Shown piece by piece: positions 2,994 to 20,172 of a stretch of 60,840 nucleotides of DNA; position 1 is the stretch's first letter; the number at the start of each line of letters is the position of its first letter. The stretch is from Candidatus Limnocylindrales bacterium (GTDB lineage Bacteria > Chloroflexota > Limnocylindria > Limnocylindrales > CSP1-4): assembly GCA_035699725.1 (NCBI GenBank), contig DASSPG010000218.1, forward strand, positions 1-60,840, written 5' to 3'. The notes beneath the pieces are model-generated. The model was not told where the DNA came from. It ran no database searches and worked only from the letters and a program-made list of their open reading frames with translations. The position numbers were made by a program, and so were the translations under genes.

Positions 2994-3356
2994 ATGTCAA
3001 GGCGAACCTTCGGCCGAGCCCTGGCGGGCGTCACCACGGCCGGCGCGCTGCTGCTGGTGACCGCGATCCCCGTGGCAGCCCACTCCCACTACGCGGAGAA
3101 CGGCCAGGCCGGCGCCGGCCAGGTCCTCGCCAACGGCCAGAACCACCCGCGCTTCATCGCCAACGGCGACGGCACCTTCTCGTCCTGCCTGAGCTATGGG
3201 CCGGTGCCCGGTGGATCCATCGGGCACGCGTGGTACGGGCTCGAGACCGCGCACCACGGTCCCGACTCGGGCGATCCCGGCAAGGGCGACGGCTGCTACA
3301 CGGCCGACGGCAGTCCCGGCGCCGGCCAGGACGACCAGAATCCCGCGATCCGCTGA
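2994..3356 (+). CDS. hypothetical secreted His/Gly/Asp-rich protein (120 aa)
   Basis: GGGAGGA lies upstream, and the ATG is 1 nt after the stop of the previous gene. The N-terminus MSRRTFGRALAGVTTAGALLLVTAIPVAA looks like a signal peptide. The mature part has two Cys and several His. GC3 is high. No family recognised. Confidence 0.55.
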   Translation: MSRRTFGRALAGVTTAGALLLVTAIPVAAHSHYAENGQAGAGQVLANGQNHPRFIANGDGTFSSCLSYGPVPGGSIGHAWYGLETAHHGPDSGDPGKGDGCYTADGSPGAGQDDQNPAIR

Positions 3357-3585: not shown

Positions 3586-3624
3586 CAACATCTCGGGCAC
3601 AGCGCCGCTGACGGCCAGATGTTG
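3586..3624 (+). terminator. possible tRNA-trailer hairpin (8-bp stem CAACATCT/AGATGTTG, about 23-nt loop)
   Basis: An inverted repeat read directly from the sequence 6 nt after the tRNA 3' end, in a locally less GC-rich patch. There is no U-tract, so terminator function is unproven. Confidence 0.2.
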
Positions 3625-3654
3625 GGGTTGCGGCCTCACTCGGGCACTGCGCCG
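3592..3654. repeat. 16-nt direct repeat CTCGGGCAC(A/T)GCGCCG, two copies (3592-3607 and 3639-3654)
   Basis: Read directly from the sequence, 15/16 identical, 47 nt start-to-start, in the non-coding tract after tRNA-Gln. Confidence 0.4.
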
Positions 3655-3857
3655 AGCGGATACCGCGCCGAGGAGGTCCGGTCGCGGCTTCCTCGCTGAC
3701 TCCGTCCCGCACTCTTCGCCCGGCTGGGAGCGCCCACCGACTGGCACGCAAGCGGCCCAGAGACGCCTCCGAGACCTTGGACGGCGGCCAGGAGGGTGGC
3801 GGGTCGCCGCGGTCGGTGAGGAGCCAGGCGACGATCTCCGCCCGCGCGAGCCCACCG

Positions 3858-4310
3858 CTACAGCCGACCGGACTCCATCATGACCTTCAGGTTGTCGAGG
3901 TCACGCTGGAACCGGCGGCCGAAGATCGCCATGAAGGGGCGACTGCCGAGTGGCTTCCAGAGCCCAGCCGGTTCGATCTCCCACGTCCAGTCGACCCTCG
4001 TGCCACCGTCGACCGGTGTGAACGTGTACCACGTGCGACCAGTCCCTCCCCAGGGCGCACTGACGAGCTTCAGCGCCACCTTGCGGTTGGGCTCGAGCTC
4101 GGTCACCTCCATCACGTTCTCCATGGTGCCGCCGAACGGACCCTTGGCCACGGCGCGGCGACGGCTCCCGACACCGGGTGGCCCAGGCGTGATGAGCTCG
4201 GCCTCGATGGCGTTGGCGGACCACTTCGTCGACTTCGTTGGATCGGTGAGCACTGCGAACACGTCTTCCACCGGTCGCGCGATGGTGACGCTGACGTCGG
4301 CTCTTCCCAT
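3858..4310 (-). CDS. SRPBCC (START/polyketide-cyclase-like) family protein
   Basis: An internal ATG was chosen because the ORF track extends to 4493. MGRADVSVTIARPVEDVFAVLTDPTKSTKWS is the typical SRPBCC N-terminus, and the size is about 150 aa. Confidence 0.7.
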   Translation of the reverse strand: MGRADVSVTIARPVEDVFAVLTDPTKSTKWSANAIEAELITPGPPGVGSRRRAVAKGPFGGTMENVMEVTELEPNRKVALKLVSAPWGGTGRTWYTFTPVDGGTRVDWTWEIEPAGLWKPLGSRPFMAIFGRRFQRDLDNLKVMMESGRL

Positions 4311-4517
4311 CTGTGATGACCTCCTGCGGGGCCCGCCGACGAGCGGGTGCGAGCGCTCCGCGTTCATCCTGCACGAGGCCGACCGGGTGCCGTCCCTGGC
4401 AGCCCTCGGGAGCGGTCGGCGCGCTGCTCCGGCCGGCTGCGCGCTGCGTGGCGCGGGGCCTCGGTTGGGCGGGATCCTCGTCCGACGTGACACGGGAGGC
4501 GTGTCGCGCCGAGGTGG

Positions 4518-5141
4518 TCAGCCAACGCCGAGCCGTGCCCGGAGCAGGAGCACGCCGGCCCACGCGTAGAAGCCGACGAGTCCGACGAGCGCCACCAGCC
4601 CGGCAACGGCGATGACAGGGTGCTCGCGACCCAGCAGCGGGAATCCCAGCGACGTGAGCGCCAGGCCGGCGCCACCGGCGATCCCCAGCCAGCCGAGAGC
4701 CGACGGCACCGCGGCTGCCGCCGCGAGCAGGGCGGCCGTCACCAACAGCCAGACCCCGATCAACCCGTTCCCCACCGTGATGAGCGTCAGCGTGGCGTCG
4801 AATGTCATCGCCTGCAGCACGAGCAGGGCGCTGAAGCCGGCGACCAGGGGCACGCCGCCGAGGTCTGCCGCCATGGCGACCCTTGCCAGCGAGACGGAGG
4901 TCCGAGACGCCACCGGGTAGAGCGCCAGCGCCAGCGGCACGGTCACGACGGCCATGGCGATCGTGTTGAGGTCGTTGAGCACGCCGAGCAATGCGGATCC
5001 GGTGCCGAAGAAGGCAAGCAGTGTCAGCAGCCCGGTCACCGTCAGGATCGCCGCGGCGATGGCCGACCAGCCTGCCAGCTTCTGCCACCCGCCCCTTGTC
5101 GGTGCGGCGGGACGTCCCCCCTGACCGAGCAGTGTGCTCAT
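4518..5141 (-). CDS. integral membrane protein, function unknown
   Basis: About six hydrophobic helices. Start taken at MSTLLGQ, 1 nt downstream of the stop of the preceding gene. Resembles the neighbouring 187-aa membrane protein in size and composition. Confidence 0.6.
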   Translation of the reverse strand: MSTLLGQGGRPAAPTRGGWQKLAGWSAIAAAILTVTGLLTLLAFFGTGSALLGVLNDLNTIAMAVVTVPLALALYPVASRTSVSLARVAMAADLGGVPLVAGFSALLVLQAMTFDATLTLITVGNGLIGVWLLVTAALLAAAAAVPSALGWLGIAGGAGLALTSLGFPLLGREHPVIAVAGLVALVGLVGFYAWAGVLLLRARLGVG

Positions 5142-5142
5142 C

Positions 5143-5706
5143 TCAATTCCGAAGCCAGAGCGCCAGGCCGATCCAGGCCAGGCCGGCGGCAAGCAGGATC
5201 CCGAATGAGGCCGAGCCGACCTGGCCGGCAGCCGGCGGAAGGAACTCGGCGATGAAGAAGACGAAGAAGAAGCCTGCGGTCGCCGCGAGCAGCAGAACGG
5301 CGGCTGCCCGCGGGAACACGTCCGCCTGGAGCGTCGCGATAGCCGTGAGCAGCAGGCCCAGCGTCAGGGCGATGCCCAGACCGAAGACCACGGCGTTCTC
5401 CCCGGACGCCTTCATGATGGACGGATGGAGCAGCGGCGTTGCCGCAATCACGACCGGCAACAGCAGGCCCGTCATCAAGAGCGCGTGCCCCACGAGCCCA
5501 AGAGTGCCCGTCGCATCCGCCTGGGCCGCGTACATGCCCGGCAGCGCCAGGAGCAGCAGTACCGCCGAACCGAACAGGAGCGCGGCGACGGCCGGCGAGA
5601 ATGGCTGGTTCACCACCGGCCGGAGCGAGATCAGGCTGATCGCCAGCCCGAGAGCGAGCGCGCCGCTCATCAGGACCGGGCCGCTCCAATGGATCGCGGC
5701 ATTCAC
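5143..5706 (-). CDS. integral membrane protein, function unknown
   Basis: Almost entirely hydrophobic Ala/Leu/Gly-rich helices. Adjoins the next gene with a 1-nt spacer. Confidence 0.6.
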   Translation of the reverse strand: MNAAIHWSGPVLMSGALALGLAISLISLRPVVNQPFSPAVAALLFGSAVLLLLALPGMYAAQADATGTLGLVGHALLMTGLLLPVVIAATPLLHPSIMKASGENAVVFGLGIALTLGLLLTAIATLQADVFPRAAAVLLLAATAGFFFVFFIAEFLPPAAGQVGSASFGILLAAGLAWIGLALWLRN

Positions 5707-7633: not shown

Positions 7634-7839
7634 TCCGCTCGCGTGAGCCAGGTACGCCGCCCTGCGTCCTCGGGCGGGAGTCGGTCGCCTGCGGGTGGCG
7701 CGGGCGAAGGTCCGACGGGGAATGAGAGCTGCGTGCGCCCGCACGCGTCCGCTCTCTAACCTCGCCCTCATGTGCTCTTCAGCTCGGAGGTCGATCGTCG
7801 TGCGTGGCGCAATCGGCGCTGGACTGCGAGGTGATCGCG

Positions 7840-8082
7840 ATGATGGGCTGGAACGTGGATGGCGGGGCTTGGCTCGGCATGGGATTCGGGATGCTGGTGT
7901 GGCTCGTCCTTGCCGTCATGGTCGTCTGGCTGATCGTTCGGGGCCTGATCGAGCTCGAACGGACGCGGACCGGAGGCGACGTGGGCTCACGGCCGGACGA
8001 GATCCTGCGCGAACGATTCGCTCGCGGGGAGATCGACCCTGACGAGTTCGAGCGGCGGCTGGCGCTCCTCCAGGGCAAGTAG
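7840..8082 (+). CDS. SHOCT-domain membrane protein
   Basis: One TM helix ([21 protein letters not shown]) followed by the SHOCT signature [22 protein letters not shown]. The start is ambiguous (GTG 7804, ATG 7840 or ATG 7843). Confidence 0.75.
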
Positions 8083-8132
8083 CCGGCCAGGCGCCGGGCA
8101 AACCCGTGGTGCGCGACTCGTATGCTGCCGGC

Positions 8133-8813
8133 ATGAGCGACGCAACGCGCATCCTCGTCGTCGATGACGACCCCAAGCTACGGACCGTCGTCCGGCGTGG
8201 CCTCGCCTACGAGGGGTACCGCGTCGTCGAAGCCGCCAGCGGCGAGGAGGGCCTCGAGAAGGCTCGCGAACACCTCCCCGAGCTCGTCGTCCTCGACATC
8301 ATGCTGCCGGGCATCGATGGTCTCGAGGTGACGCGGCGGCTTCGAGCAGCCGGTGACGAGATCTCCATTCTGATGCTGACCGCGAGAGACGAGGTCAGGG
8401 ACCGGGTGGAGGGCCTGGAGACAGGCGCGGACGACTACCTCGTTAAGCCATTCAGCTTCGAGGAGCTGCTCGCGAGGGTCCACGCGCTCCTTCGACGGCG
8501 GCAGACGCCGGCTGGCGAGGTCCTTCGCTTCGCCGACCTCGAGCTCGATGTCGACGCCCGTGAGGCAACGCGCGGCGGCCGGACGATCGAGCTGACAACG
8601 ACCGAGTTCAATCTCCTGCTCCTGTTCATGCGACATCCTCGGAAGGTGCTCACGCGGGACGTGATCATGGAGCGCGTCTGGGCCTACGACTTCGAGGGAG
8701 AGTCAAACGTCCTCGAGGTGTACGTCCGATACCTACGCAGCAAGCTCGAGTCGAACGGCGAGTCGCGCCTGATCCACACGATCCGGGGCGCGGGCTACGT
8801 CCTCAAGGAGTGA
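8133..8813 (+). CDS. OmpR-family response regulator
   Basis: Receiver motifs [29 protein letters not shown] and DDYLVKPF. Winged-helix C-terminus ending [11 protein letters not shown]. Confidence 0.92.
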
Positions 8814-10216
8814 ACCGCCTTCCGCGCCGGCGATCGATTCGGACGCGACTGGCGCTCATCTACACCGGCCTGCTGGCGGTCGCACTGATCGCCTTCGGCG
8901 CAGGTCTTTTCTTCGTGCTCCGCGCGCAGCTCGAGGCCTCGTTCGATGTCGGCCTCCGTGCAAACGCGGAGCATGCCAGCGGCGCCTTCGCCCAGGACGT
9001 CGATGCCTCGGGTGCGCTCAGCCCATCGCAACGACTGGTCGACCAGTTCGCATCGACCGGCGGAAGGGTCGTCATCCTCGACCCGAGTGGGTCGGTCCTC
9101 GGCGATTCAGCGGGGTCGGGCGCCACGCCGCTGCCGGTCGCCGCTGAGGACCTCATCGCCGCCGATCGGCGTGACCACGTGACCCGCGATGTTCGATGGG
9201 CCGACGACGTGCTCCGCATCACCGTCGAACCGGTCATCGCCGCGGACGGCCGTCAGATGGGCTACGTGGCATGGGCGGAATCGACGCGGCGGCTCCGGGA
9301 TGTCCTGACGGATGTCGGCTCGTCACTCGTTCTGGGTGCATGTGTCGTCGTGCTCCTCGCTCTCGCGGGCGGTCTTGTTCTCGCCCGCGGTGCGCTCGCG
9401 CCGGTGGCCGAGGTGACGGACACCGCGCGGGCCATCGCCCTGTCTGGTGACTTCGCGGCACGCGTTGACGCCGGCCGGCCCGGCGACGAGGTCGGCGACC
9501 TGGCCGTCGCGTTCAACGAGATGTTGGCCGCCCTCGAGCACAACCACCAGACCCTCCAGCGATTCCTCGGCGACGCCTCTCACCAACTGCGCACCCCGCT
9601 GACGACCATCCGGGCGAACCTCGACCTTGCCAGGCGACAGGACGTGCCCGACGAGGACCGACGCGCGATCCTCGCGGACGCCCGCGACGAGGCCGAACGG
9701 ATGGCCCGCCTCGTGACGGACCTGCTTGCGCTCGCTCGGGCGGACTCAGGCGCACGGCTGGACGTCGCTCCGGTCGAGCTCGACGCCGTCGTGGTCGAAG
9801 CCGTTCGGCGCCAGGCACAGGCCGCGTCGCATGTGAAGATGACCGTCTCGGTCGCACCGGCCCTCGTGGATGGCGACCGGGACCGGCTCGCCGACCTCCT
9901 CGGCGTCCTCCTCGACAACGCCGCGCGCTACACGCCGGACGGCGGCTCGGTCGATACGGAGCTGTCCATCAACGATGGACTGGCCGTGCTGCGGGTCAGT
10001 GACACCGGGATCGGGCTGACCGACGAGGATCGCCGACGCGTCTTCGAGCGGCTGTACCGCGGAACGCGAGCGCGCGGGCTCCGTCCGTCGGGCACTGGTC
10101 TGGGGCTTGCCATCGCACGGTGGATCGTCGAGTCGCATGGCGGGACGATCGAGCTCACGAACCGTGACGGCGGCGGTGCTCGAGCGACGATCATGCTGCC
10201 TCTGCACGAGCCATGA
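8810..10216 (+). CDS. sensor histidine kinase (2 TM, extracytoplasmic loop, HAMP, HisKA, HATPase_c)
   Basis: 4-nt overlap with the response regulator gene. H-box [17 protein letters not shown]-box [10 protein letters not shown]-boxes SDTGIGL and [10 protein letters not shown]. Confidence 0.92.
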
Positions 10217-10401
10217 GAGCACTGGGACGAGCCGCACCGTCGTGAGGCCGTCAGCCGCCCCTGGCACCCGACCAGGGTCCGTCTCCGATGCCGTGGCGGC
10301 TGGATCCGACGAAGTCTCACTCCCGGTTCAGGTTCGCCTCAGCGTCGTCGATCACGCTCGGGGACAGATGCAGCCATGGAGCTGCGACAGAGGCTCTGAC
10401 G

Positions 10402-11496
10402 ATGCTCCTGGCCCGACGAAACCTGACTCACGACCGCGTCCGGCTCATCCTCAGCATCACCGGCGTCGCCCTTTCGGTGATGCTCATCCTCCTCCTCGCG
10501 GGGTACCTGGCCGGCATCTACCGGCAGGCCTCGGCGTACCTCGAGAACGCGCCGGGCTCCGTCGTGGTCGCCCAGAGGGGCGTCCGGACATTTGCCGGAT
10601 CGAGCTCATTCCTCTCGCCCGAGATCCTCGGGGCCGTGCGGGCGACGCCCGGCGTGGAGCGGGCCGTCCCGATCGTCATGCTTGCGGCGGTGCTGGAGCT
10701 CCATGACCGCAAGGAGATCGCGAGCCTCGTCGGCTACGACCCCAGCCAGGGGGGCGGGCCGTGGAAGCTCGCCGATGGCCAGGTTCCCGCGGCAGACGAC
10801 GAGGTGGTCGTGGATCGGGTGCTGGCAAACCAGCACGGCATCGCCGTGGGGACAGCGGTGCGGATCCTCGATCGGCAGTTCACGGTCGTCGGGCTGTCAG
10901 AGGGCACGTCGCTCTGGATCGGCTCCTATGCCTTCGCACGTGCGGCGGCTGTGCAGGGCCTGCTCCGTGCGCCCGGCGTCTGGAGCGCGATCTTCGTCAT
11001 GCCGGCCGCCGGTGTCAGCGAGGCTGACGTCGTCCAGGCCGTCTCCATCCCCGGGGTCGAGGCGTTCGCGAAGATCGAGAAGATCGAGGCCGACCGGAAG
11101 GGGATCGCCCGGATCTACGACGCGCCGCTCGGGCTGATGGTCGCGATCGCGTTCGTGGTCGGCGTGCTTGTCGTTGGGCTCGTGATCTACACGGCGACGA
11201 TCGAGCGACGCCGCGAGTACGGCGCGCTCAAGGCCATCGGGATGCGCAACAGGACGCTGTACCGGCTCGTGGCGAGCCAGGCACTGATCGCCGCGGTCGC
11301 GGGCGGGCTGCTCGGCGTGGCCCTGGCTGTTGGCGTCGGCGCACTGCTCAATGCGCTTCGTCCACAGTTCCCGGTCGTCATCGAGCTCGAGGCGATCGCG
11401 AAGGCGCTCGCCGCGAGCCTCGCGATGGCGGTCATCGCGGCACTCGCTCCGGCTCGCGCGATGGCCGGCCTGGCGCCGGCGGAGGTGTTCCGATGA
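10402..11496 (+). CDS. ABC transporter permease, FtsX/MacB type (large extracytoplasmic domain)
   Basis: N-terminus MLLARRNLTHDRVRLILSITGVALSVMLI, an extracytoplasmic loop of about 200 aa, and a C-terminal FtsX helix bundle (RRREYGALKAIGM). ATG at 10402 was chosen. Confidence 0.88.
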   Translation: MLLARRNLTHDRVRLILSITGVALSVMLILLLAGYLAGIYRQASAYLENAPGSVVVAQRGVRTFAGSSSFLSPEILGAVRATPGVERAVPIVMLAAVLELHDRKEIASLVGYDPSQGGGPWKLADGQVPAADDEVVVDRVLANQHGIAVGTAVRILDRQFTVVGLSEGTSLWIGSYAFARAAAVQGLLRAPGVWSAIFVMPAAGVSEADVVQAVSIPGVEAFAKIEKIEADRKGIARIYDAPLGLMVAIAFVVGVLVVGLVIYTATIERRREYGALKAIGMRNRTLYRLVASQALIAAVAGGLLGVALAVGVGALLNALRPQFPVVIELEAIAKALAASLAMAVIAALAPARAMAGLAPAEVFR

Positions 11497-12617
11497 GCGC
11501 GACATGGCTGCTGGCCAGACGCAACCTCCTCCGCAGTCGCGCCCGCCTGACCGTGTCGATCGGAGGGGTTGCCCTGGCCTTGACACTCGTCCTCGCCCTC
11601 GACGCGATCTTCGAGGGCGTTTCGCGCCAGCTGACCGCATACATCGACCGGTCGGGCGCCGACGTCTGGGTGGCCCAATCCGGCGTCCGCAACCTTCATA
11701 TGGTCGCCTCGTGGCTGCCGGCGACGACGACCGACGCCGTGGCCGATCTCGAAGGTGTCGCACTCGCCGAGCCGATCCTGTACACCACCGACTCCATGTC
11801 GGCCGGCGACGAGCGCGGCTGGGCGTATGTCATCGGCCTCACGCCCGACGCCACGATGGGCGGTCCGTGGGACGTCGTCGAAGGTGCCGGGCAAGCAGGT
11901 TCCGGCGAGGCCGTCATCGACCGGCGCTTCGCGCAGCGGGCCGGCGTCGGGATCGGCGACCGGGTGACCCTGCTCGGCCGCGAGTTTCGGATCGCGGGCC
12001 TCACCGACGGGACCGCGAGCCTCGTCAACTCGGTCGCCTTCGTATCGTTCGACGACTTCGCCGCGCGGCGCGGTGGCGAGCCGGCCGTCAGCTTCGTCCT
12101 CGTCAGGGCAGCCGACGGCGTCTCGCCCGACACGCTCGCGCAAGTCATCGGATCGAACGTCGACGGCGTGACCGCGCAGTCGAGGGTGGCGTTCGGCCTC
12201 GCCGAGAGGAAGCTGGCGCTGGACATGAGTGGCGACGTCATCTCGATCATGAACGTGATCGGGTTCGTCGTGGGCCTCGCCGTCGTCGCTCTCACGGTCT
12301 ACATCGCGACGCTGGCGCTGCGGCGGGAGTATGGCTCGCTCAAGGCCGTTGGCGCGTCCGGTGGGTACCTGTATCGCGTCGTCCTCGCCCAGGCGGGACT
12401 GAGCGTCGCCGCCGGCTTCCTCGCCGCGGTCGCCATCACGGCCGCGTTGAGCCTGATCGTCCCGCGCACCGGCGCGAACCTTGAGCTCGCGATCGCCGGC
12501 GCATCGCTCACCAAGGTCGGCATCGTCGCCGCCGTGATCGCCGCGCTCGCCGCGCTGCTCCCGATCCGCCAGATCGCGAATCTCGATCCCGCCCTCGTCG
12601 CCCGGGAAGGAGTCTGA
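11493..12617 (+). CDS. ABC transporter permease, FtsX/MacB type (paralog of the preceding gene)
   Basis: 4-nt overlap with the previous permease. Same architecture: LLARRNLLRSRARLTVSIGGVAL and LRREYGSLKAVGA. Confidence 0.88.
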   Translation: MSATWLLARRNLLRSRARLTVSIGGVALALTLVLALDAIFEGVSRQLTAYIDRSGADVWVAQSGVRNLHMVASWLPATTTDAVADLEGVALAEPILYTTDSMSAGDERGWAYVIGLTPDATMGGPWDVVEGAGQAGSGEAVIDRRFAQRAGVGIGDRVTLLGREFRIAGLTDGTASLVNSVAFVSFDDFAARRGGEPAVSFVLVRAADGVSPDTLAQVIGSNVDGVTAQSRVAFGLAERKLALDMSGDVISIMNVIGFVVGLAVVALTVYIATLALRREYGSLKAVGASGGYLYRVVLAQAGLSVAAGFLAAVAITAALSLIVPRTGANLELAIAGASLTKVGIVAAVIAALAALLPIRQIANLDPALVAREGV

Positions 12618-12620
12618 ACC

Positions 12621-13529
12621 GTGAGCGCCCTCACCCTTGACGTTCAACACGTCACGAAGCGCTACGGGGACGGCGATACCGCAGTCACAGCCGTCCGCGA
12701 CGTGTCGCTTGCGGTCCAGCCCGGCGAGGTCGTCCTCATCATGGGCCCCTCCGGCTCGGGCAAGACGACCCTCCTGTCGATGATGGGCGCCCTTCTGCGA
12801 CCCACCTCCGGCGCGATTCACCTCGACGGGTCGGCGCTCAGCGAGCTCTCCGAGGGCCGCCTGCCGGCGATCCGCCTCCACCAGTTCGGGTTCATCTTCC
12901 AGGACTTCAATCTCCTCTCGGCACTCACGATCCGGGAGAACGTCGCTCTGGTGGCCGAGCTCGCCGGGTCGAAGCGCAAGGCGGCCCGCGAGAAGGCGAC
13001 CGAGATCCTGACCGACCTCGGTCTCGGTGCGCGGCTCGACTTCCTCCCGGAGAAGCTGTCGGGCGGCGAGAAGCAGCGGGTGGCCATCGCGCGGGCGCTC
13101 ATCAACGATCCCGCGCTCATCCTGGCGGACGAGCCCACGGCCAACCTCGACTCCAAGATCGGCCACGAGATCATGCGGCTCCTGCGGAGCATCGCGAAGG
13201 AGCAGGGCCGGAGCGTGGTGATCGTCAGCCACGATCAGCGGATCCGCGACATCGCCGACCGCGTGCTCTGGCTCGAGGACGGCGAGTTCAAGGACGTCGT
13301 CAGGATGGCGACCGACCCGGTCTGTGGCATGACCGTCGAGCGGGATGACGCGGTCAGCGTCGAACGCGACGGAGAGACCTACTCCTTCTGCTCGAAGGGC
13401 TGTCGCGCGGAGTTCCTTGGCGGCGCCAAGAGCGACGGCCTGACGCACGGCCGGGCCATCGTCCGTCGAGCCCGTTCGGTGCTGGCTCAGCTGGCTTCCG
13501 GGACGGACGATCGCCAGTCCAGCGGCTGA
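12621..13529 (+). CDS. ABC transporter ATP-binding protein (MacB/LolD type) with C-terminal YHS/TRASH metal-binding domain
   Basis: Walker A GPSGSGKTT, signature LSGGEKQR, Walker B LILADEPT. The C-terminal DPVCGMTVERDDAVSVERDGETYSFCSKGCRAEF is the YHS pattern. GTG start 3 nt after the permease stop, with GGAAGGAG upstream. Confidence 0.9.
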   Translation: MSALTLDVQHVTKRYGDGDTAVTAVRDVSLAVQPGEVVLIMGPSGSGKTTLLSMMGALLRPTSGAIHLDGSALSELSEGRLPAIRLHQFGFIFQDFNLLSALTIRENVALVAELAGSKRKAAREKATEILTDLGLGARLDFLPEKLSGGEKQRVAIARALINDPALILADEPTANLDSKIGHEIMRLLRSIAKEQGRSVVIVSHDQRIRDIADRVLWLEDGEFKDVVRMATDPVCGMTVERDDAVSVERDGETYSFCSKGCRAEFLGGAKSDGLTHGRAIVRRARSVLAQLASGTDDRQSSG

Positions 13530-13821
13530 TGTCGTCGTCGAGGCGGCTCGCGCGGCTGTCGCGACGCGTGCATCGGGCGACGCGCCCGAACGAGGCAACG
13601 GGCGCCCGAGCTCGTCGGCCGGCTCCTCGACACCCGGCGCTGCCCCTCACGTCCAGGGCTGGGCCGCCGGCCGCCCTGGAGAGCCCCGGGTCGCTCCCTC
13701 CGCGAGGCAACGGCCGGGATGGCGAGCGCTGGAGTTCCACGTTCTAAGCCCGCTCTCAGGTGCGCCTCACTCGCGGCTCACGCCCGACCCCGAGCCTAGG
13801 ACCGATCAGGAGGGATCCTCC

Positions 13822-14196
13822 ATGAAGCCGGTCGCTCGAACTGCACTGCTGATGAGCCTCGTGATCGCACCCGTTGCCATTGGCGCGTGCCAGGCCTCGC
13901 CGCCCGGAGCGCCGACCGTCGTGTTCGAGGAGATGCGCTTTGTCCCGAACCGCCTCGACGCCATGGTGGGCGAGCCGCTTCGGGTGACGCTCATCAACAA
14001 GGGCCGGGAGCGCCACGACCTCAGCTTCCCGGCACTCCACATGCCCGGGCTCCAGGGTCTCGAGGCCATCCTCGAACCTGGTGAGACTCGGACCATCACG
14101 CTCACCTTCGACCGGCCCGGCACGCACACGTTCCAGTGCAGTGTTCCGGGCCACGCGATTTCCGGCATGACTGGAGCCGTGTTCGTCCGGCCGTGA
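13822..14196 (+). CDS. blue (type-1) copper protein, azurin/auracyanin-like, probable lipoprotein
   Basis: AGGAGGGA lies upstream. Signal plus lipobox: LLMSLVIAPVAIGAC. Copper ligand pattern: His in RERHDLSF, then FQCSVPGHAISGM (C-x4-H-x4-M). Confidence 0.85.
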   Translation: MKPVARTALLMSLVIAPVAIGACQASPPGAPTVVFEEMRFVPNRLDAMVGEPLRVTLINKGRERHDLSFPALHMPGLQGLEAILEPGETRTITLTFDRPGTHTFQCSVPGHAISGMTGAVFVRP

Positions 14197-14323
14197 CCGA
14201 GATGGAGACCGCGACCGATCGAGCCCCAGCCGTCCGGCACGCCGGCGACCGGCGTGAGCGGCTCGCACTCGGGCAGCACGACCGGCGGGGCGCGACGCCT
14301 CCATCGTCGGCGGGAGCACCCCG

Positions 14324-15388
14324 ATGAGCTCGACCCAACCGGTAGCCGCCCGGCCCGGTCCGCGCGGCGAGCAGGTCATCGAGATCGTCGCCGACCACGG
14401 GTACCGGCCGCAATCGATCGTCGCGAGAGCTGGGGTACCGCTGCGCCTCGTGTTCCGCCGGCGCGACGACGACGCCTGCATGGACCGAATCGTCTTCTCG
14501 TCTCCCCATCTCGACCGCCGCCTTGTGCGGGGCTCGGCGACCACGATCGTGCTGCCCGCGCAACCGGTGGGAGAGATCCGGTTCACCTGCGGCATGGGGC
14601 GCTACCACGGCGAGATCGAGCTCCGGGCCGAAGCCTCGTCGTCGATCGCGGCCGTGCGCGGCGCGGTGACGGACAGATTGAGGCACGGGTGGCGGCGCAT
14701 CCGCGGTCCGGTTCCACCAACCGTTGAGCAGGAGGCCATGGCCATTGTCCGATCCCGCCTCGAAGGACGAGATCAACGAGGGAGACTTCCGGCCCGAACG
14801 CGCGGGTCTGGACAACCACGGAACCATCCCATGGGAGGCACCGTCGTGAGGCACGAGCCCGAATCGACCCGCAGCGAACGTCGGGTCGCGGCGATCGCCG
14901 ACAGGCGAACGGAACGCCGTCGCAGACGCTCCGTCACCGTTCAGCACGAGCAGCGCAGGAATGCTCGGGTCCGGACTGCGGCGTTCGGCGTCGTCGCCGT
15001 CGTCGTCCTTGGCGCGGGTGTGTACCTCGCCGCCGGTGATCTGTTCGGCCAACGGGGCGCAGCGACGACCGCGGACACCATCCCCGTGCGGATGAGCATG
15101 GCCGGCTTCACGCCCGGCGAGGTCCGCATTCCCGCCGGCGAGACCGTCGCGCTCGAGCTCTGGACGACGGACGCAGCGCCCCACCTGGACAACGGCGTCC
15201 ACACGATGATCAGCGATGAACTCGGGATCTACGAGGAGCTGCCCGCGGCGGGCCCGACCGGCGAGAGCCGGCGGGTGGTCGAGTTCGAGGCGCCCGCGAC
15301 GCCGGGCACGTATGACATCTACTGCGACACGTGCTGCGGCGGGAAGGAAAGCCCGACCATGCACGGCAAGCTCATCGTCGAGGCATAG
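14324..15388 (+). CDS. bitopic protein with an N-terminal Cupredoxin_1-type domain, an Arg-rich linker, one TM helix and a C-terminal cupredoxin with a Cys-rich CuA-like motif
   Basis: The N-terminal domain (aa 16-100) carries DDDACMD and IRFTCGMGRYHG. The TM helix is AAFGVVAVVVLGAGVYLAAG (aa 219-238). The C-terminal domain carries NGVHTM and YCDTCCGGKESPTMHG. There is no in-frame stop between the two halves. Confidence 0.75.
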   Translation: MSSTQPVAARPGPRGEQVIEIVADHGYRPQSIVARAGVPLRLVFRRRDDDACMDRIVFSSPHLDRRLVRGSATTIVLPAQPVGEIRFTCGMGRYHGEIELRAEASSSIAAVRGAVTDRLRHGWRRIRGPVPPTVEQEAMAIVRSRLEGRDQRGRLPARTRGSGQPRNHPMGGTVVRHEPESTRSERRVAAIADRRTERRRRRSVTVQHEQRRNARVRTAAFGVVAVVVLGAGVYLAAGDLFGQRGAATTADTIPVRMSMAGFTPGEVRIPAGETVALELWTTDAAPHLDNGVHTMISDELGIYEELPAAGPTGESRRVVEFEAPATPGTYDIYCDTCCGGKESPTMHGKLIVEA

Positions 15389-15390
15389 GC

Positions 15391-16296
15391 GTGTCTCCCC
15401 GCCAGCCTGCGACCTGTCACGACTCGGCCCCCACCGGGTCACTCGCGGCGACGCCGGTTCTCCCCCCGCCGGCGTCGCCCCTCATCCTCGGCCTCCCCCG
15501 GCCGGCGTTCGTGCTGGCGACGGCACTCCTCGCCGTGGGGCTGGGCGCGTCGGCCTACGTCATCGCCGTCCCGTTCCAGGCGGCCTCCTTCGGCGGCCTG
15601 ACCGTGCCGGCGGTCCTCGCCGCAGGGATCGCCGACGGGTTCAACCCGTGTGCCTTCGCCCTGCTCGTCCTCTTCGCGACCTACACGCTCACACTCGTCA
15701 ACTCCGTCACCGCGGACGGCAGCCCGACGATCGAGGCGCGGCGCCGTCTGCTCGGGGCGGGCTCGCTCTACGTCGGCGCCGTCTGGGTGACCTACTTCGT
15801 CATCGGGCTCGGGCTGCTGTCGTTCCTGGGCTGGCTCGGCCAGGACCATCTGGTGACGCGCGTTGCGGCGGTCCTCGCGCTGGCGATGGCGCTGTGGATG
15901 CTCAAGGACGTCTTCCTTCCCGGTTGGGGGCCATCGATGATGGCGCCCGCCGGCACCCACGGCAGGATGCACAGGGCGATTGAACGCGGCGGCCTCGCGG
16001 GGATGCTTCTCGCCGGCGTCCTGGTCGGCATCTGCACCGTGCCCTGCTCGGGCGCGATCTATCTCGACATCGTCGCCGTCCTCAACGCCTCGGGCGGCGG
16101 CCCGACCGGTCTCGCCCTCCTGGCGCTCTACAACATCGCCTTCATCGTGCCGCTCGTGGCTCTCCTCGGCGCCGTCAGCAACCGGCGCGTGCTGGGTCGG
16201 CTCGGGCGCTGGAACCGGTCGAACAGCCCGTGGATCAAGGCAGGCCTCGCGCTTGCGGTCCTGGCGATGAGCTTCGGCTTGCTGGTGACCACGTGA
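15391..16296 (+). CDS. ccdA: CcdA/DsbD-family thiol:disulfide electron-transfer membrane protein
   Basis: GTG lies 2 nt after the previous stop. Conserved membrane Cys motifs: GFNPCAFALLVLF and GICTVPCSGAIY. Six predicted helices. Confidence 0.8.
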   Translation: MSPRQPATCHDSAPTGSLAATPVLPPPASPLILGLPRPAFVLATALLAVGLGASAYVIAVPFQAASFGGLTVPAVLAAGIADGFNPCAFALLVLFATYTLTLVNSVTADGSPTIEARRRLLGAGSLYVGAVWVTYFVIGLGLLSFLGWLGQDHLVTRVAAVLALAMALWMLKDVFLPGWGPSMMAPAGTHGRMHRAIERGGLAGMLLAGVLVGICTVPCSGAIYLDIVAVLNASGGGPTGLALLALYNIAFIVPLVALLGAVSNRRVLGRLGRWNRSNSPWIKAGLALAVLAMSFGLLVTT

Positions 16297-16520: not shown

Positions 16521-17645
16521 CTAGCGAGCGATCTTCGCGACGGCCTCGGCGATCACCACGTCCTCGCGCGACTCGATGCGGAGGATCGCCGGCGCCCCGG
16601 CCGCCGTCGAGATCGGCCCGTCCTGCTCGACGTCAGCGGGCACGATGGGCGCCACGCCGATGCCCCCGAGGCGGTCCACGATCCGCGCCCGGATGGTCCC
16701 GGAGTGCTCGCCGATGCCACCGGTGAAGACGACCGCGTCGACGCCGGTCAGGCACGTCGCAGCGGCGGCGATGCCGGCCGCCGCACGCCGCGTGAACATC
16801 GCCAGCGCGAGTCGCGCCCGCGCGTCGCCGGCAGCCTCGGCCGCGAGCAGGTCCCGCACGTCCGACGACAGGCCGGACACGCCCAGCAGGCCCGACCCAT
16901 GCTCGAGGGCCTCGGCCAGCTGCGCCGCGGTCGCATGGCCTTCGCGGATCAGCGCCAGCACGATCCCGGGGTCGATCGACCCCGACCGACTGCCCATCAT
17001 CAGGCCCTCGATCGGGGTCATGCCCATCGACGTGTCGACCGAACGACCGCCCTCGACGGCGGTGACGGAGCAGCCGCTGCCGAGGTGGGCGACGACGAGC
17101 CGGAGCGCTCCCGATGGCCGCCCGAGCAGCTCGGCGGCGCGGGTGACGGACCACGCGACCGACAGGCCATGGAATCCGTATCGGCGCACGCCCCAGGCCT
17201 CGGACCAGTGGGCCGGCACGGGATAGCGGTACGCGACCTCCGGCAGGCCGGCGTGGAAGGCCGTGTCGAAGGCTGCCACGTGGACGGCGTCGGGCAGCGC
17301 CGCCCGAGCCGCGCGGATCGTCTCGGCCGCGATCCGGTTGTGGAGCGGCGCATACGGCTCCAGGTCGTCGATCGCACCGAGGACGGCGTCGTCGACGCGG
17401 ACGGGACCCGTGTGGAGCGCTCCACCGTGCACGACCCGGTGACCCACCGCGGCGATCGACTCCCGGACGACCCCGGCTGCCGCGACGTCCCGCAGGACGG
17501 CATGGATGGCCGATGCGCGATCGGGCGAACGTGTCGCGTCGGCGCCCCATGCGATGGCCGTCGCGGCCAGCGCGTCCCGGCCGGGCGGCTCGATGACCGA
17601 CGCCTTCAGCGAGCTCGACCCCGGGTTCAGGACGAGAATCCGCAT
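16521..17645 (-). CDS. ackA: acetate kinase
   Basis: MRILVLNPGSSSLKASV N-terminus, VGHRVVHGG, FDTAFH, RRYGFHGLS and ends in VFTGGIGEHS. Start re-picked at 17645; the track extends to 17942. Confidence 0.95.
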   Translation of the reverse strand: MRILVLNPGSSSLKASVIEPPGRDALAATAIAWGADATRSPDRASAIHAVLRDVAAAGVVRESIAAVGHRVVHGGALHTGPVRVDDAVLGAIDDLEPYAPLHNRIAAETIRAARAALPDAVHVAAFDTAFHAGLPEVAYRYPVPAHWSEAWGVRRYGFHGLSVAWSVTRAAELLGRPSGALRLVVAHLGSGCSVTAVEGGRSVDTSMGMTPIEGLMMGSRSGSIDPGIVLALIREGHATAAQLAEALEHGSGLLGVSGLSSDVRDLLAAEAAGDARARLALAMFTRRAAAGIAAAATCLTGVDAVVFTGGIGEHSGTIRARIVDRLGGIGVAPIVPADVEQDGPISTAAGAPAILRIESREDVVIAEAVAKIAR

Positions 17646-17656
17646 CGGCCGCCGCC

Positions 17657-20041
17657 TCAGGACGGCCAGGCCCAGTCGCGGATCTCCGGCGCGTCCTCGC
17701 CGTGCTCGCGGGTGTACGCGCGGGCCTCGACCCGGCGATCGGCCATGAGCTGGCGGACATGGGCGGCGCGCGAGCCGAGCCCCGGGACACGGTCGATCAC
17801 GTCCATGACGAGGTGGAAGCGATCGAGGTCGTTGAGCATCACGATGTCGAACGGCGTCGTGACCGTGCCCTCCTCCTTGTAGCCGCGGACGTGCAGGTTG
17901 GCGTGGTTCGTCCGGCGGTACGTCAGCCGGTGGATCAGCCACGGATAGCCGTGATAGGCGAAGACGATCGGGCGATCGCGGGTGAAGATCGTGTCGAACT
18001 CCCGGTCGGCGAGACCATGGGGATGCTCGCTGTCGGGCTGGAGGCGCATCAGGTCGACCACGTTCACGACCCGGACCTTGACCTCAGGGAGGTGCTGCCG
18101 GATCAGGTCGACCGCCGCCAGGGTCTCGAGCGTCGGTACGTCGCCGCAGCAGGCCATGACGACATCCGGGTCGCCGTCGTCGTTGCTGGCCCAGTCCCAG
18201 ATCCCGAGGCCGCGGGTGGCATGCAGGATCGCCTCGTCCATCGAGAGGTAGTTCAGGGCGGGCTGCTTGCCGGCGACGATGACGTTGACGTAGTTGCGGC
18301 TGCGCAGGCAGTGGTCCGCCACCGACAGGAGCGTGTTCGCGTCAGGCGGCAGGTACACCCGGATCGCCTGGGCCTTCTTGTTGAGAACGTGGTCGATGAA
18401 GCCCGGGTCCTGGTGGCTGAAGCCGTTGTGGTCCTGGCGCCAGACGTGGCTCGTCAGGAGGTAGTTCAGCGAGGCGATCGGACGCCGCCACGGGATCTCG
18501 GAGGTCATCTTCAGCCACTTCGCGTGCTGGTTGAACATCGAGTCGACGATGTGGATGAACGCCTCGTAGCAGTTGAAGAGCCCATGGCGCCCGGTCAGCA
18601 GGTAGCCCTCGAGCCAGCCCTGGCACTGGTGCTCGGAGAGCACCTCCATGACGCGCCCGTCCGGCGCGAGGTGATCATCGGTCGGGAGCCGCTCCGCTGC
18701 CCACGCCCGGTCCGTGGCCTCGAAGACCGGCGACAGCCGGTTGGAGGCCGTCTCGTCCGGCCCGAAGATCCGGAACGTCTCGGGGTTGCGCCGGACGATG
18801 TCGCGCAGGAACCCACCGAGGACCCGGGTGGCCTCGCTGCTGCTGGCACCCGGACGCTCGACCGGCACGCCGTAGTCGCGGAAGTCCGGCAATGCGAGGT
18901 CACGCAGCAGGAGGCCTCCGTTGGCGTGCGGGTTCGCGCTCATCCGGCGCTCGCCCCGCGGGGGCAGTGCGGCGAGATCCGGTCGGAGGGCGCCGGCGGG
19001 ATCGAACAGCTCATCCGGCCGGTAGCTCCGGAGCCAGCGGTCCAGGATCGCCAGATGGTCCGGCTTCGCGCGGACATCCGACATCGGGACCTGGTGCGAG
19101 CGGAAGCTGCCCTCGGTCGGCTGGCCGTCGACCTCCGCCGGTCCGGTCCAGCCTTTCGGGGAGCGCAGGACGATCATCGGCCATCGCGGGCGGGTCCCGG
19201 CGTCGTCCTGCCGGGCGGCCCGCTGGATGGCGGCAACCTCGTCCAGGACCTCGTCCAGGGCGGACGCCATCCGCTGATGCATCGCGGCCGGATCGTCGCC
19301 CTCGACGAAGACCGCGCGGTAGCCGTAGCCCTCGACGAGCGCAGCCAGCTCCGCGCCGGGGATCCGGGCCAGGAAGGTGGGGCTGGCGATCTTGTACCCG
19401 TTGAGATGGAGGATCGGGACGACGGCGCCGTCCGTCCTCGGGTTCACGAACTTGTTGGAGTGCCAGCTGGTCGCGAGCGGCCCGGTCTCGGCCTCACCAT
19501 CGCCGACGACGCAGAACACGACGAGGTCCGGGTTGTCGAAGGTCGCCCCGAAGGCATGGCTGAGCGCGTACCCGAGCTCGCCGCCCTCGTGGATCGAGCC
19601 GGGGGTCTCGGGCGTCACGTGACTGCCGATTCCGCCGGGGAACGAGAACTGCCGGAACAGCCGCCGGATCCCCTCCTCGTCCGGCGTGATGTCCGGGTAG
19701 ACCTCCGAGTAGGTGCCCTCGAGATACGCGTTGGCGACGGTCGCGGGACCGCCATGTCCCGGACCGATGACGTAGATCGCATCGAGGTCGCGGGCGCGGA
19801 TCACCCGGTTCAGGTGGGCATAGACGAAGTTGAGCCCGGGCGTCGTCCCCCAGTGTCCGAGAAGGCGAGGCTTGATGTGCTCCGCCCGGAGGGGCTCGCG
19901 CAGGAGCGGGTTGTCGAGCAGGTAGATCTGGCCGACGGAGAGGTAGTTGGCGGCGCGCCAGTAGGCATCGATCCGCCCGAGCTCGTCCGGCGCAAGCGGT
20001 CCGGGGTGTTCGGGCGACATGGTCGAGGTTCGGTCGCTCAT
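17657..20041 (-). CDS. xfp: xylulose-5-phosphate/fructose-6-phosphate phosphoketolase
   Basis: [48 protein letters not shown] and [12 protein letters not shown], about 794 aa. An alternative ATG lies at 20053. The gap to ackA is 11 nt. Confidence 0.95.
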
Positions 20042-20172
20042 CGCATCCTCCATGAGCGAGCCTAGCCCCGCGGACGAATCACGGCAGGGAGCGCGTGCCA
20101 TGCAGGACGGCTCGATCCGAAACCTCGTCCACGGCGTGGCGTCGTGGGAGTAAGACCTGCGCCCGACACCGT

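Follow-up and report, generated by a model that had tools for sequence, protein, structure and literature searches.

The nucleotide-binding domains (NBDs) of ATP-binding cassette (ABC) transporters act only as dimers, and in MetN (MetNI), ModC (ModBC), and MalK (MalFGK2) a ligand-binding domain located after the NBD controls NBD closure. The type VII ABC systems MacB, LolCDE, FtsEX, and BceAB pass ATP-driven motion to the outside of the membrane. MacB, LolCDE, and FtsEX have four transmembrane (TM) helices per protomer, and their substrates are handled outside the membrane. To our knowledge, the solved structures of these three systems have no transmembrane substrate channel, and what tells type VII systems when to run is known in a few cases only. 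We analyzed a 60,840-nt stretch of DNA (71% G + C) from a Candidatus Limnocylindrales bacterium (contig DASSPG010000218.1), hereafter called the window, in which one gene encodes an ATPase of the MacB/LolD type fused at its C-terminus to a YHS/TRASH domain. We consider it most plausible that this fusion serves regulation by cytoplasmic metal.

The best precedent for a sensor role of such a domain, and by analogy the strongest outside evidence for one here, is the class IIIc adenylyl cyclase of Mycobacterium phlei. This enzyme carries a C-terminal YHS domain on an 8-residue linker, with D178, C181, C204, and C208 as ligands (PMC4626032). Copper at 1–10 µM increased its activity sixfold and switched on Mg-dependent activity, and the isolated catalytic domain lacking YHS did not respond (PMC4626032). 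The precedent for metal binding by YHS itself is indirect, consisting of this Cu response of the cyclase and of the Cd bound in L24e, and the YHS domain of P1B-type ATPases is likewise a putative metal binder only (PMC4626032).

The fusion gene and the parts of its product are given below with the evidence for each.

12621 to 13529, forward strand: ABC ATPase-YHS fusion gene (open reading frame (ORF) list, frame analysis of third-codon-position G + C (GC3), Pfam ABC_tran and YHS, same architecture in homologues)
12621 to 13292, forward strand: NBD of the MacB/LolD/FtsE type, residues 1–224 (motifs, NCBIfam, PDB matches, AlphaFold2 (AF2) model)
13293 to 13313, forward strand: short linker of about 8 residues, residues 225–231, the KDVVRMAT region (EDG-to-Asp distance in relatives; predicted local distance difference test (pLDDT) about 81)
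13314 to 13421, forward strand: YHS/TRASH domain, residues 232–267 (Pfam PF04945, ligand conservation, pLDDT 82–93)
13422 to 13526, forward strand: non-conserved, probably disordered C-terminal tail, residues 268–302 (variable alignment, length range, pLDDT)

The ORF encodes 302 amino acids followed by a stop codon, and its GC3 of 0.90 is usual for real genes in the window. All five ABC motifs were found in the proper order, namely Walker A (GPSGSGKT at 42), the Q-loop (Q94), the signature (LSGGE at 146), Walker B (ILADE at 167), and the H-loop (H204), and the product is thus a complete ABC transporter ATPase of the PF00005 family. Pfam matched ABC_tran (PF00005) at residues 26–174 with 121 bits and YHS (PF04945) at residues 231–266 with E = 4.8e-9 and 36.5 bits, above the gathering score of 30.3. 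TRASH_HVO_1752_C and zf-FCS matched the same C-terminal segment more weakly. The initial annotation, which had placed a YHS/TRASH domain behind a complete MacB/LolD-type NBD, was borne out by these results, and its coordinates (13311–13421, residues 231–267) were right to within one codon. The 35-residue tail that it had added to the architecture is present in the ORF but is not a feature of the family, because its length and sequence vary among relatives and its pLDDT is below 50. After the last Cys, the aligned relatives have 10 to 61 residues without conservation, and AF2 gave a pLDDT below 50 for the last 32 residues of the fusion protein.

The putative metal ligands are D232, C235 (nt 13323), C257 (nt 13389), and C261 (nt 13401). 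Their spacing, D232-x2-C235-x21-C257-x3-C261, fits the TRASH ligand pattern D/C-x2-C-x19-22-C-x3-C and agrees with the ligands discussed for YHS domains (PMC4626032), and the peptide quoted in the initial annotation, DPVCGMTVERDDAVSVERDGETYSFCSKGCRAEF, covers residues 232–265 (nt 13314–13415). This motif is far beyond chance, because these residues do not vary even in relatives with only 45% identity. Among 71 aligned bacterial and archaeal fusions, Asp232 was conserved in all 71 and each Cys in 70, with a Cys spacing of 20–22 residues. The distance from the EDG motif at the end of the NBD to the Asp of DPVC was 10–14 residues in 66 relatives.

Structure prediction was performed using a mixed bacterial and archaeal alignment, which gave a mean pLDDT of 88. 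A model built from near-identical sequences (mean pLDDT of 56, NBD unusable) was discarded. In the model used, the pLDDT was above 90 for the NBD and 82–93 for the YHS segment, which is folded into three short strands and one helix. The best Foldseek match was the E. coli MacB NBD, with a root-mean-square deviation of 1.3 Å over 222 columns and a TMt of 0.94. No good structural match in the Foldseek search reached past about 225 columns, and a domain equivalent to the YHS tail was found in no solved type VII NBD. A comparison of the tail alone with PDB sequences yielded nothing beyond marginal matches to L24e, a TRASH protein of the ribosome (E = 0.1–1).

We examined the distribution of the fusion using the best 120 clusters per query (clusters at 90% identity, with precomputed Pfam annotation). 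All of the best 120 clusters, at 74–100% identity, contain the fusion; 115 are flagged with PF04945 and PF00005, and the 5 unflagged ones still read DP[VI]CGM...FCSxGC. They come from metagenome-assembled genomes (MAGs) of Chloroflexota/Limnocylindria and Thermoleophilia and from farmland-soil metagenomes, and their source labels are only "putative ABC transport system ATP-binding protein" or "ATP-binding cassette domain-containing protein". With a 48% identical protein from a Hodarchaeales MAG (P0175), the most divergent of the representatives described below, as the query, both domains were present in 99 of the 120 best matches; among these are Thorarchaeota, Promethearchaeota, Candidatus Lokiarchaeum ossiferum, Harpocratesius, Hadarchaeaceae, Thermoplasmata, Chloroflexi, and Patescibacteria. 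Altogether, the fusion occurs in at least 200 distinct clusters at 90% identity from many bacterial and archaeal phyla, and its carriers include Chloroflexota, Actinomycetota, a gammaproteobacterial MAG, Patescibacteria, Asgard archaea, Hadarchaeia, and Thermoplasmata. A gene-calling or frameshift artefact as the origin of the fusion was ruled out, as the junction is conserved in more than 200 clusters.

The junction was also found in species-representative genomes of Thermoflexaceae, Actinomycetes, and Acidimicrobiales/Acidimicrobiia and in an Oceanospirillales MAG. In a census of reference genomes using back-translated patterns, generic ABC motifs dominated, and among the matches listed only L001–L006 span the junction; these loci serve as examples, not counts. 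In a search with the full protein, the YHS region was covered in about 12 of the best 150 representatives (50% identity); the top of this list was dominated by double-NBD ABC proteins, and this count of 50%-identity clusters is a lower bound. We regard the architecture itself as real with near certainty. The fusion is thus widespread, either old or repeatedly selected, and strongly constrained exactly at the presumed metal ligands. Two variants of the junction were also observed. One relative of 368 aa (P0040, 78–82% identity) has two tandem YHS domains after the NBD, and L005 contains a short remnant (3061–3138), IDRVLWIEDATFRELDAMAYDPVGGM, which resembles a decayed second NBD-YHS junction with the first Cys lost.

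The gene lies directly behind two permease genes.

10288 to 11496, forward strand: permease 1, MacB_PCD and FtsX (Pfam, hydropathy, synteny; the true start is probably downstream of 10288)
11493 to 12617, forward strand: permease 2, MacB_PCD and FtsX (Pfam, hydropathy, synteny)

The permease genes overlap by 4 nt, and permease 2 ends 3 nt before the ATPase gene. According to the hydropathy analysis, each permease contains four hydrophobic segments, the first two of which (TM1 and TM2) are separated by a loop of about 200 aa. Permease 1 is also found next to the fusion in L002–L006, L081, L083, L084, and L087. The PDB sequences closest to the NBD are MJ0796, MacB, LolD, YtrE, YbbA, BceA, and FtsE, and MetN is also among the closest sequences and structures. 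By both the clade of the NBD and the features of the permeases, the module is classified as a type VII ABC system consisting of two different permeases and a separate ATPase.

None of the named type VII systems that we considered was a match. The best NCBIfam matches of the NBD were DevA, LolD, MacB, and FtsE, every one below its cut-off. MacAB-TolC was rejected, as the NBD is a separate polypeptide and the MacB equivalog score was 214 against a cut-off of 966. No gene for a HlyD/MFP protein (MacA-type adaptor) was found in the window cluster or in L006. LolCDE was rejected with scores of 215.6 for LolD (TIGR02211, cut-off 307.75) and 20.9 for lolCE (cut-off 362), and the shared two-permease layout is an analogy. 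DevA, the best NCBIfam match, reached 245.8 against a cut-off of 295.8, DevC reached 36–43 against 290, and a DevB adaptor gene was not found; DevBCA was therefore also rejected.

The flanking genes of the module in the window are as follows.

7804 to 8082, forward strand: small membrane protein with a SHOCT domain, just upstream of the CopRS-like two-component system
8106 to 8813, forward strand: OmpR-type response regulator, CopR/CusR subfamily-like (Pfam Response_reg and Trans_reg_C; second-best match TIGR01387 with 243 bits, below the cut-off of 279)
8810 to 10216, forward strand: sensor histidine kinase, CopS/CusS subfamily-like (Pfam HAMP, HisKA, and HATPase_c; best NCBIfam match TIGR01386 with 220 bits over the full length, below the cut-off of 292)
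13822 to 14196, forward strand: small cupredoxin, probable lipoprotein (Pfam Cupredoxin_1 and Copper-bind; partial NCBIfam match to CopI; N-terminal hydrophobic segment)
14324 to 15388, forward strand: 354-aa protein with two cupredoxin-like domains around one TM segment (Pfam Cupredoxin_1 in two stretches; TM residues 219–237)
15331 to 16296, forward strand: polytopic membrane protein with CcdA/DsbD-like paired Cys motifs (NPC, VPC), seven hydrophobic segments, and a weak ArsG-family match; last gene of the cluster

The small cupredoxin has a lipobox-like AIGAC, the type-1 Cu motif CSVPGHAISGM, and a C-terminus like that of the copper-resistance protein CopI, and no terminator-like site was found by the terminator scan between its gene and the ATPase gene. 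The 354-aa protein may have cupredoxin domains on both sides of the membrane, because a signal-less N-terminal cupredoxin is followed by one TM segment and a second cupredoxin. Its N-terminal cupredoxin-like domain contains the motif FTCGMGRYHG and is followed by an Arg-rich stretch before the TM segment; the second, YCDTCCGGKESPTMHG, weakly matches the CuA region of NosZ. The last protein of the cluster had no Pfam match and may be CcdA-like by its paired Cys motifs. Its ORF overlaps the preceding gene by 58 nt, so that the true start is probably later. The remainder of the window encodes ordinary metabolism without further copper genes, and the promoter/terminator, Rfam, and tRNA scans of the window otherwise yielded nothing bearing on the fusion. 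Directly beyond the copper cluster, acetate kinase and phosphoketolase (XFP) are encoded on the opposite strand (16521–20101). About 100 extra residues at the N-terminus of the acetate kinase ORF overlap the phosphoketolase ORF, and the real start of acetate kinase is thus probably further in.

The same context recurs in the clade with two permeases. The permease-permease-ATPase-YHS triad was intact every time and lay within 8 kb of copper or heavy-metal genes in all nine close-clade loci. L002 has a P-type ATPase with an N-terminal YHS domain, and a CsoR-family repressor is encoded directly downstream. L003 contains genes for Lgt and a cupredoxin lipoprotein and for a 1027-aa P-type ATPase (12426–15509, reverse strand), which carries a Cupredoxin_1 domain internally and a YHS domain at its C-terminus. 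In L005, a cupredoxin-like match and a further YHS-like ORF are nearby (tblastn matches only). L081, L083, L084/85, and L087 contain cupredoxins, CsoR, MerR, stand-alone YHS proteins of 53–66 aa, and P-type ATPases, together with a small gene immediately upstream of the module:

L081 5543 to 5776, L083 5543 to 5776, L084 332 to 565, and L087 5542 to 5775: 77-aa HMA-fold gene 4 nt upstream of permease 1

No such gene is present in the window. Near the ABC-YHS module, L003, L081, and L083 have both cupredoxin lipoproteins and an Lgt gene, and SHOCT genes are found again in L087 (2155–2376) and L001 (4963–5163). In L086, two genes downstream of the ABC-YHS gene, a weak YHS match is combined with an EAL cyclic di-GMP phosphodiesterase (3601–4680), a case of YHS on another signalling enzyme.

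The nearest ATPases without a YHS domain have separate YHS genes nearby, as in L007 (a small YHS protein with a His-rich end) and L009. Because tail-less ATPases near separate YHS genes form a fusion/fission (Rosetta-stone) pattern with the fused proteins, the gene arrangement argues that YHS and this ABC family work together. The Campylobacter fetABCDEF cluster, in which a YHS membrane protein accompanies a two-permease ABC system (PMC10783030), points the same way. In L009, the YHS-less ABC module is flanked by genes for ArsP_1-type "predicted permeases" with a C-terminal YHS domain of about 60 bits (4240–5646 and 11887–12531, both on the reverse strand), so that YHS also serves as a tail in another transporter family unrelated to this one.

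With respect to the mechanism, we infer the metal binding, the identity of the metal, activation as the sign of regulation, and the transporter substrate as follows. The fusion protein provides the ATPase of a type VII system built from two different permeases, presumably with two ATPase copies, and the YHS/TRASH domain would lie in the cytoplasm on its short linker under the NBD. The tail probably binds metal; a soft metal, most likely Cu(I) in the clade of the window, would be bound via Asp232, Cys235, Cys257, and Cys261. The metal-loaded domain would then act as an allosteric sensor that alters how the two NBDs close, most likely turning ATP hydrolysis on, and the tail could in this way control NBD dimerization. 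What the permeases do outside the membrane, whether to copper or to the cupredoxin lipoproteins encoded nearby, would be coupled to the cytoplasmic copper status, and the upstream CopRS-like two-component system would add transcriptional control. Because type VII systems act outside the membrane, a metal site on the cytoplasmic side is more easily understood as a switch than as a place for loading substrate. For this reading as a whole, a cytoplasmic Cu-sensing regulatory tail that gates a type VII ABC system, we consider the chances to be even.

Several observations weigh against this reading. The distant lineages (L006, L088, L089, and L090) have a single permease per module and an inconsistent metal context: L089 has nothing metal-related, L088 adjoins a NiFe hydrogenase, and the gammaproteobacterial L006 has signalling genes and an M48 peptidase and no adaptor. 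Among these four, only L090 has a P-type ATPase directly upstream, together with PadR. Because the copper context fades outside the clade of the window, different lineages may sense different ligands, or the ligand may be something other than copper altogether. On sequence reading, no obvious Met/His-rich metal motifs were found in the extracytoplasmic domains of the two permeases. The upstream HMA protein of the relatives is an atypical variant with one Cys (GLGCGGAG) and no CxxC. The case for activation rather than inhibition is one of analogy. In addition, the YHS domain of toluene-4-monooxygenase was crystallised metal-free and has no known copper role (cited in PMC4626032), which also favours the first of the alternatives below.

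According to this alternative, the tail is a structural zinc ribbon, permanently Zn-bound or metal-free, that serves as a dimerization or docking module without metal sensing. TRASH is a treble-clef/zinc-ribbon-like fold, L24e holds its metal structurally (PMC4626032), and the tail itself weakly matches L24e and zf-FCS; the distant members without copper context are also consistent with it. However, the structural site of L24e consists of four Cys, whereas the first ligand here is Asp, as in the Cu-responsive cyclase and the YHS domains of Cu-ATPases. The location of all nine close-clade loci amid copper genes also speaks against a structural role, and many close homologues of the NBD family work without such a domain, indicating that it is not needed for assembly. 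We therefore consider a structural zinc ribbon unlikely.

The YHS domains at the termini of P-type ATPases in L002 and L003 and on the ArsP_1-type permeases in L009, and the small HMA and YHS proteins encoded beside the module in relatives, could instead point to a substrate hand-off. The system would then be a true copper exporter. Its tail would take up cytoplasmic Cu(I), possibly from these small proteins, and supply the membrane domain with it for export, a role like that suggested for the metal-binding domains of P1B-type ATPases. Such a route is at odds with the type VII architecture, in which the solved structures offer no transmembrane channel, and the single Cys of the upstream HMA proteins leaves a classical CopZ-to-YHS hand-off unsupported. 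The specific candidate prompted by the four relatives, a CopZ chaperone that loads the tail, was rejected in this form on that ground and by the absence of the gene from the window. We judge substrate hand-off to be quite improbable. A thiol-redox switch, in which the Cys triad responds to oxidative or disulfide stress or to CcdA-like/thioredoxin systems and a disulfide locks or releases the ATPase, is very improbable: the three invariant Cys, the CcdA/DsbD-like protein in the same cluster, and the thioredoxins of the analogous fet cluster fit it, but an invariant Asp together with a fixed C-x20-22-C-x3-C spacing characterises a metal site, and CcdA-type proteins send reductant outside the membrane, not to the cytoplasm.

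If the metal-sensing reading is correct, an invariant metal site on the motor domain would be a simple on/off switch for a type VII system, and the poorly understood YHS domain would gain a second functional context beyond one adenylyl cyclase. The fusion occurs in hundreds of clusters, whose sources range from soil bacteria to Asgard archaea, and a single biochemical study would thus supply the annotation for a large family that is labelled only "ABC transporter ATP-binding protein". It could also reveal an unrecognised copper-handling branch alongside CopA, CsoR, and cupredoxins. In its widest form, the proposal is that this is the first recognised metal-gated type VII machine, in which Cu(I), or another soft metal elsewhere, on both YHS tails would license ATP-driven mechanotransmission, so that the internal metal status would drive work on cupredoxin lipoproteins or envelope copper. 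It would be an ancient module, present in Asgard and other archaea, Chloroflexota, Actinomycetota, and Patescibacteria, and would define a new large class of metal-homeostasis transporters. We put this wider proposal forward tentatively, as a possible extension.

In our search of the literature and the PDB, no YHS/TRASH tail was described on an ATPase of the MacB/FtsX type or on any prokaryotic ABC ATPase, and a paper on the C. glutamicum CopRS regulon has ftsX only as a cell-division gene. The statement of the initial annotation that such tails are unfamiliar on type VII ATPases thus holds for papers and PDB entries but not for sequences, as at least 200 clusters at 90% identity carry them. 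The annotation had also been prepared to give way if the architecture proved common and functionally described; it is common, but it is not described. The fusion is a large uncharacterised family rather than a rare object, already visible in the automatic annotation of hundreds of entries. Control via a C-terminal domain is not new in principle: YHS as a C-terminal sensor of an obligate-dimer enzyme has an experimental precedent in the M. phlei cyclase (PMC4626032), and ligand-binding domains at the C-terminus of ABC NBDs are established for MetN, ModC, and MalK. Ligand-regulated ABC NBDs and YHS as a sensor module are both of known kinds, and the principle would not astonish a specialist.

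Among ABC transporters, Leishmania LmABCB3 likewise has a TRASH-family domain of unknown role, but it is a eukaryotic mitochondrial ABCB half-transporter with TRASH in an N-terminal extension, not on the NBD (PMC4700571). The Campylobacter jejuni FetABCDEF system combines the YHS-containing FetA with a two-permease, one-ATPase ABC system of unknown role (FetBCD) and the thiol-redox proteins FetEF, beside a system with a copper-dependent periplasmic protein (PMC10783030). There, a separate polytopic membrane protein carries the YHS domain, for which a periplasmic location is predicted, and the system serves iron acquisition (PMC10783030). The P1B-type copper ATPases with an N- or C-terminal YHS domain, encoded in the same neighbourhoods (L002, L003), place the same small domain on the cytoplasmic side of a metal-related, ATP-driven membrane machine, although this machine is a P-type and not an ABC ATPase.

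The type VII systems (MacB/LolCDE/FtsEX/YbbAP/BceAB/HrtBA/DevCA) share with the module the NBD sequence and fold, the FtsX TM bundle, and the MacB periplasmic core domain, and LolC and LolE provide a comparable layout of two different permeases. Unlike the module, the solved members have no domain after the NBD; the module, for its part, has no MacA-like adaptor, and its equivalog scores are below the cut-offs. With regard to architecture, MetN (C2/ACT-like) and ModC and MalK (TOBE-like) also have an extra ligand-binding domain after the NBD, located below the NBD dimer, which controls closure (trans-inhibition). They differ from the fusion in the fold of this domain, in the ligand (amino acid or oxyanion versus metal), in being type I importers rather than type VII, and in using inhibition where we propose activation. 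The extra domain of the fusion is YHS/TRASH, neither ACT-like nor TOBE, and the Foldseek alignments to MetN and MalK stop at about 222–231 columns, covering the NBD only.

The M. phlei cyclase differs in that its catalytic domain is not an ABC NBD, its output is cyclic AMP and not mechanical work on a membrane complex, and its family comprises about 26 sequences compared with hundreds of clusters for ABC-YHS. In both proteins, a YHS domain with the D-x2-C and C-x3-C ligand pairs about 22 residues apart is attached at the extreme C-terminus, through a linker of about 8 residues, to a catalytic domain that works only as a dimer, and in both it is proposed to be an on-switch for cytoplasmic copper.

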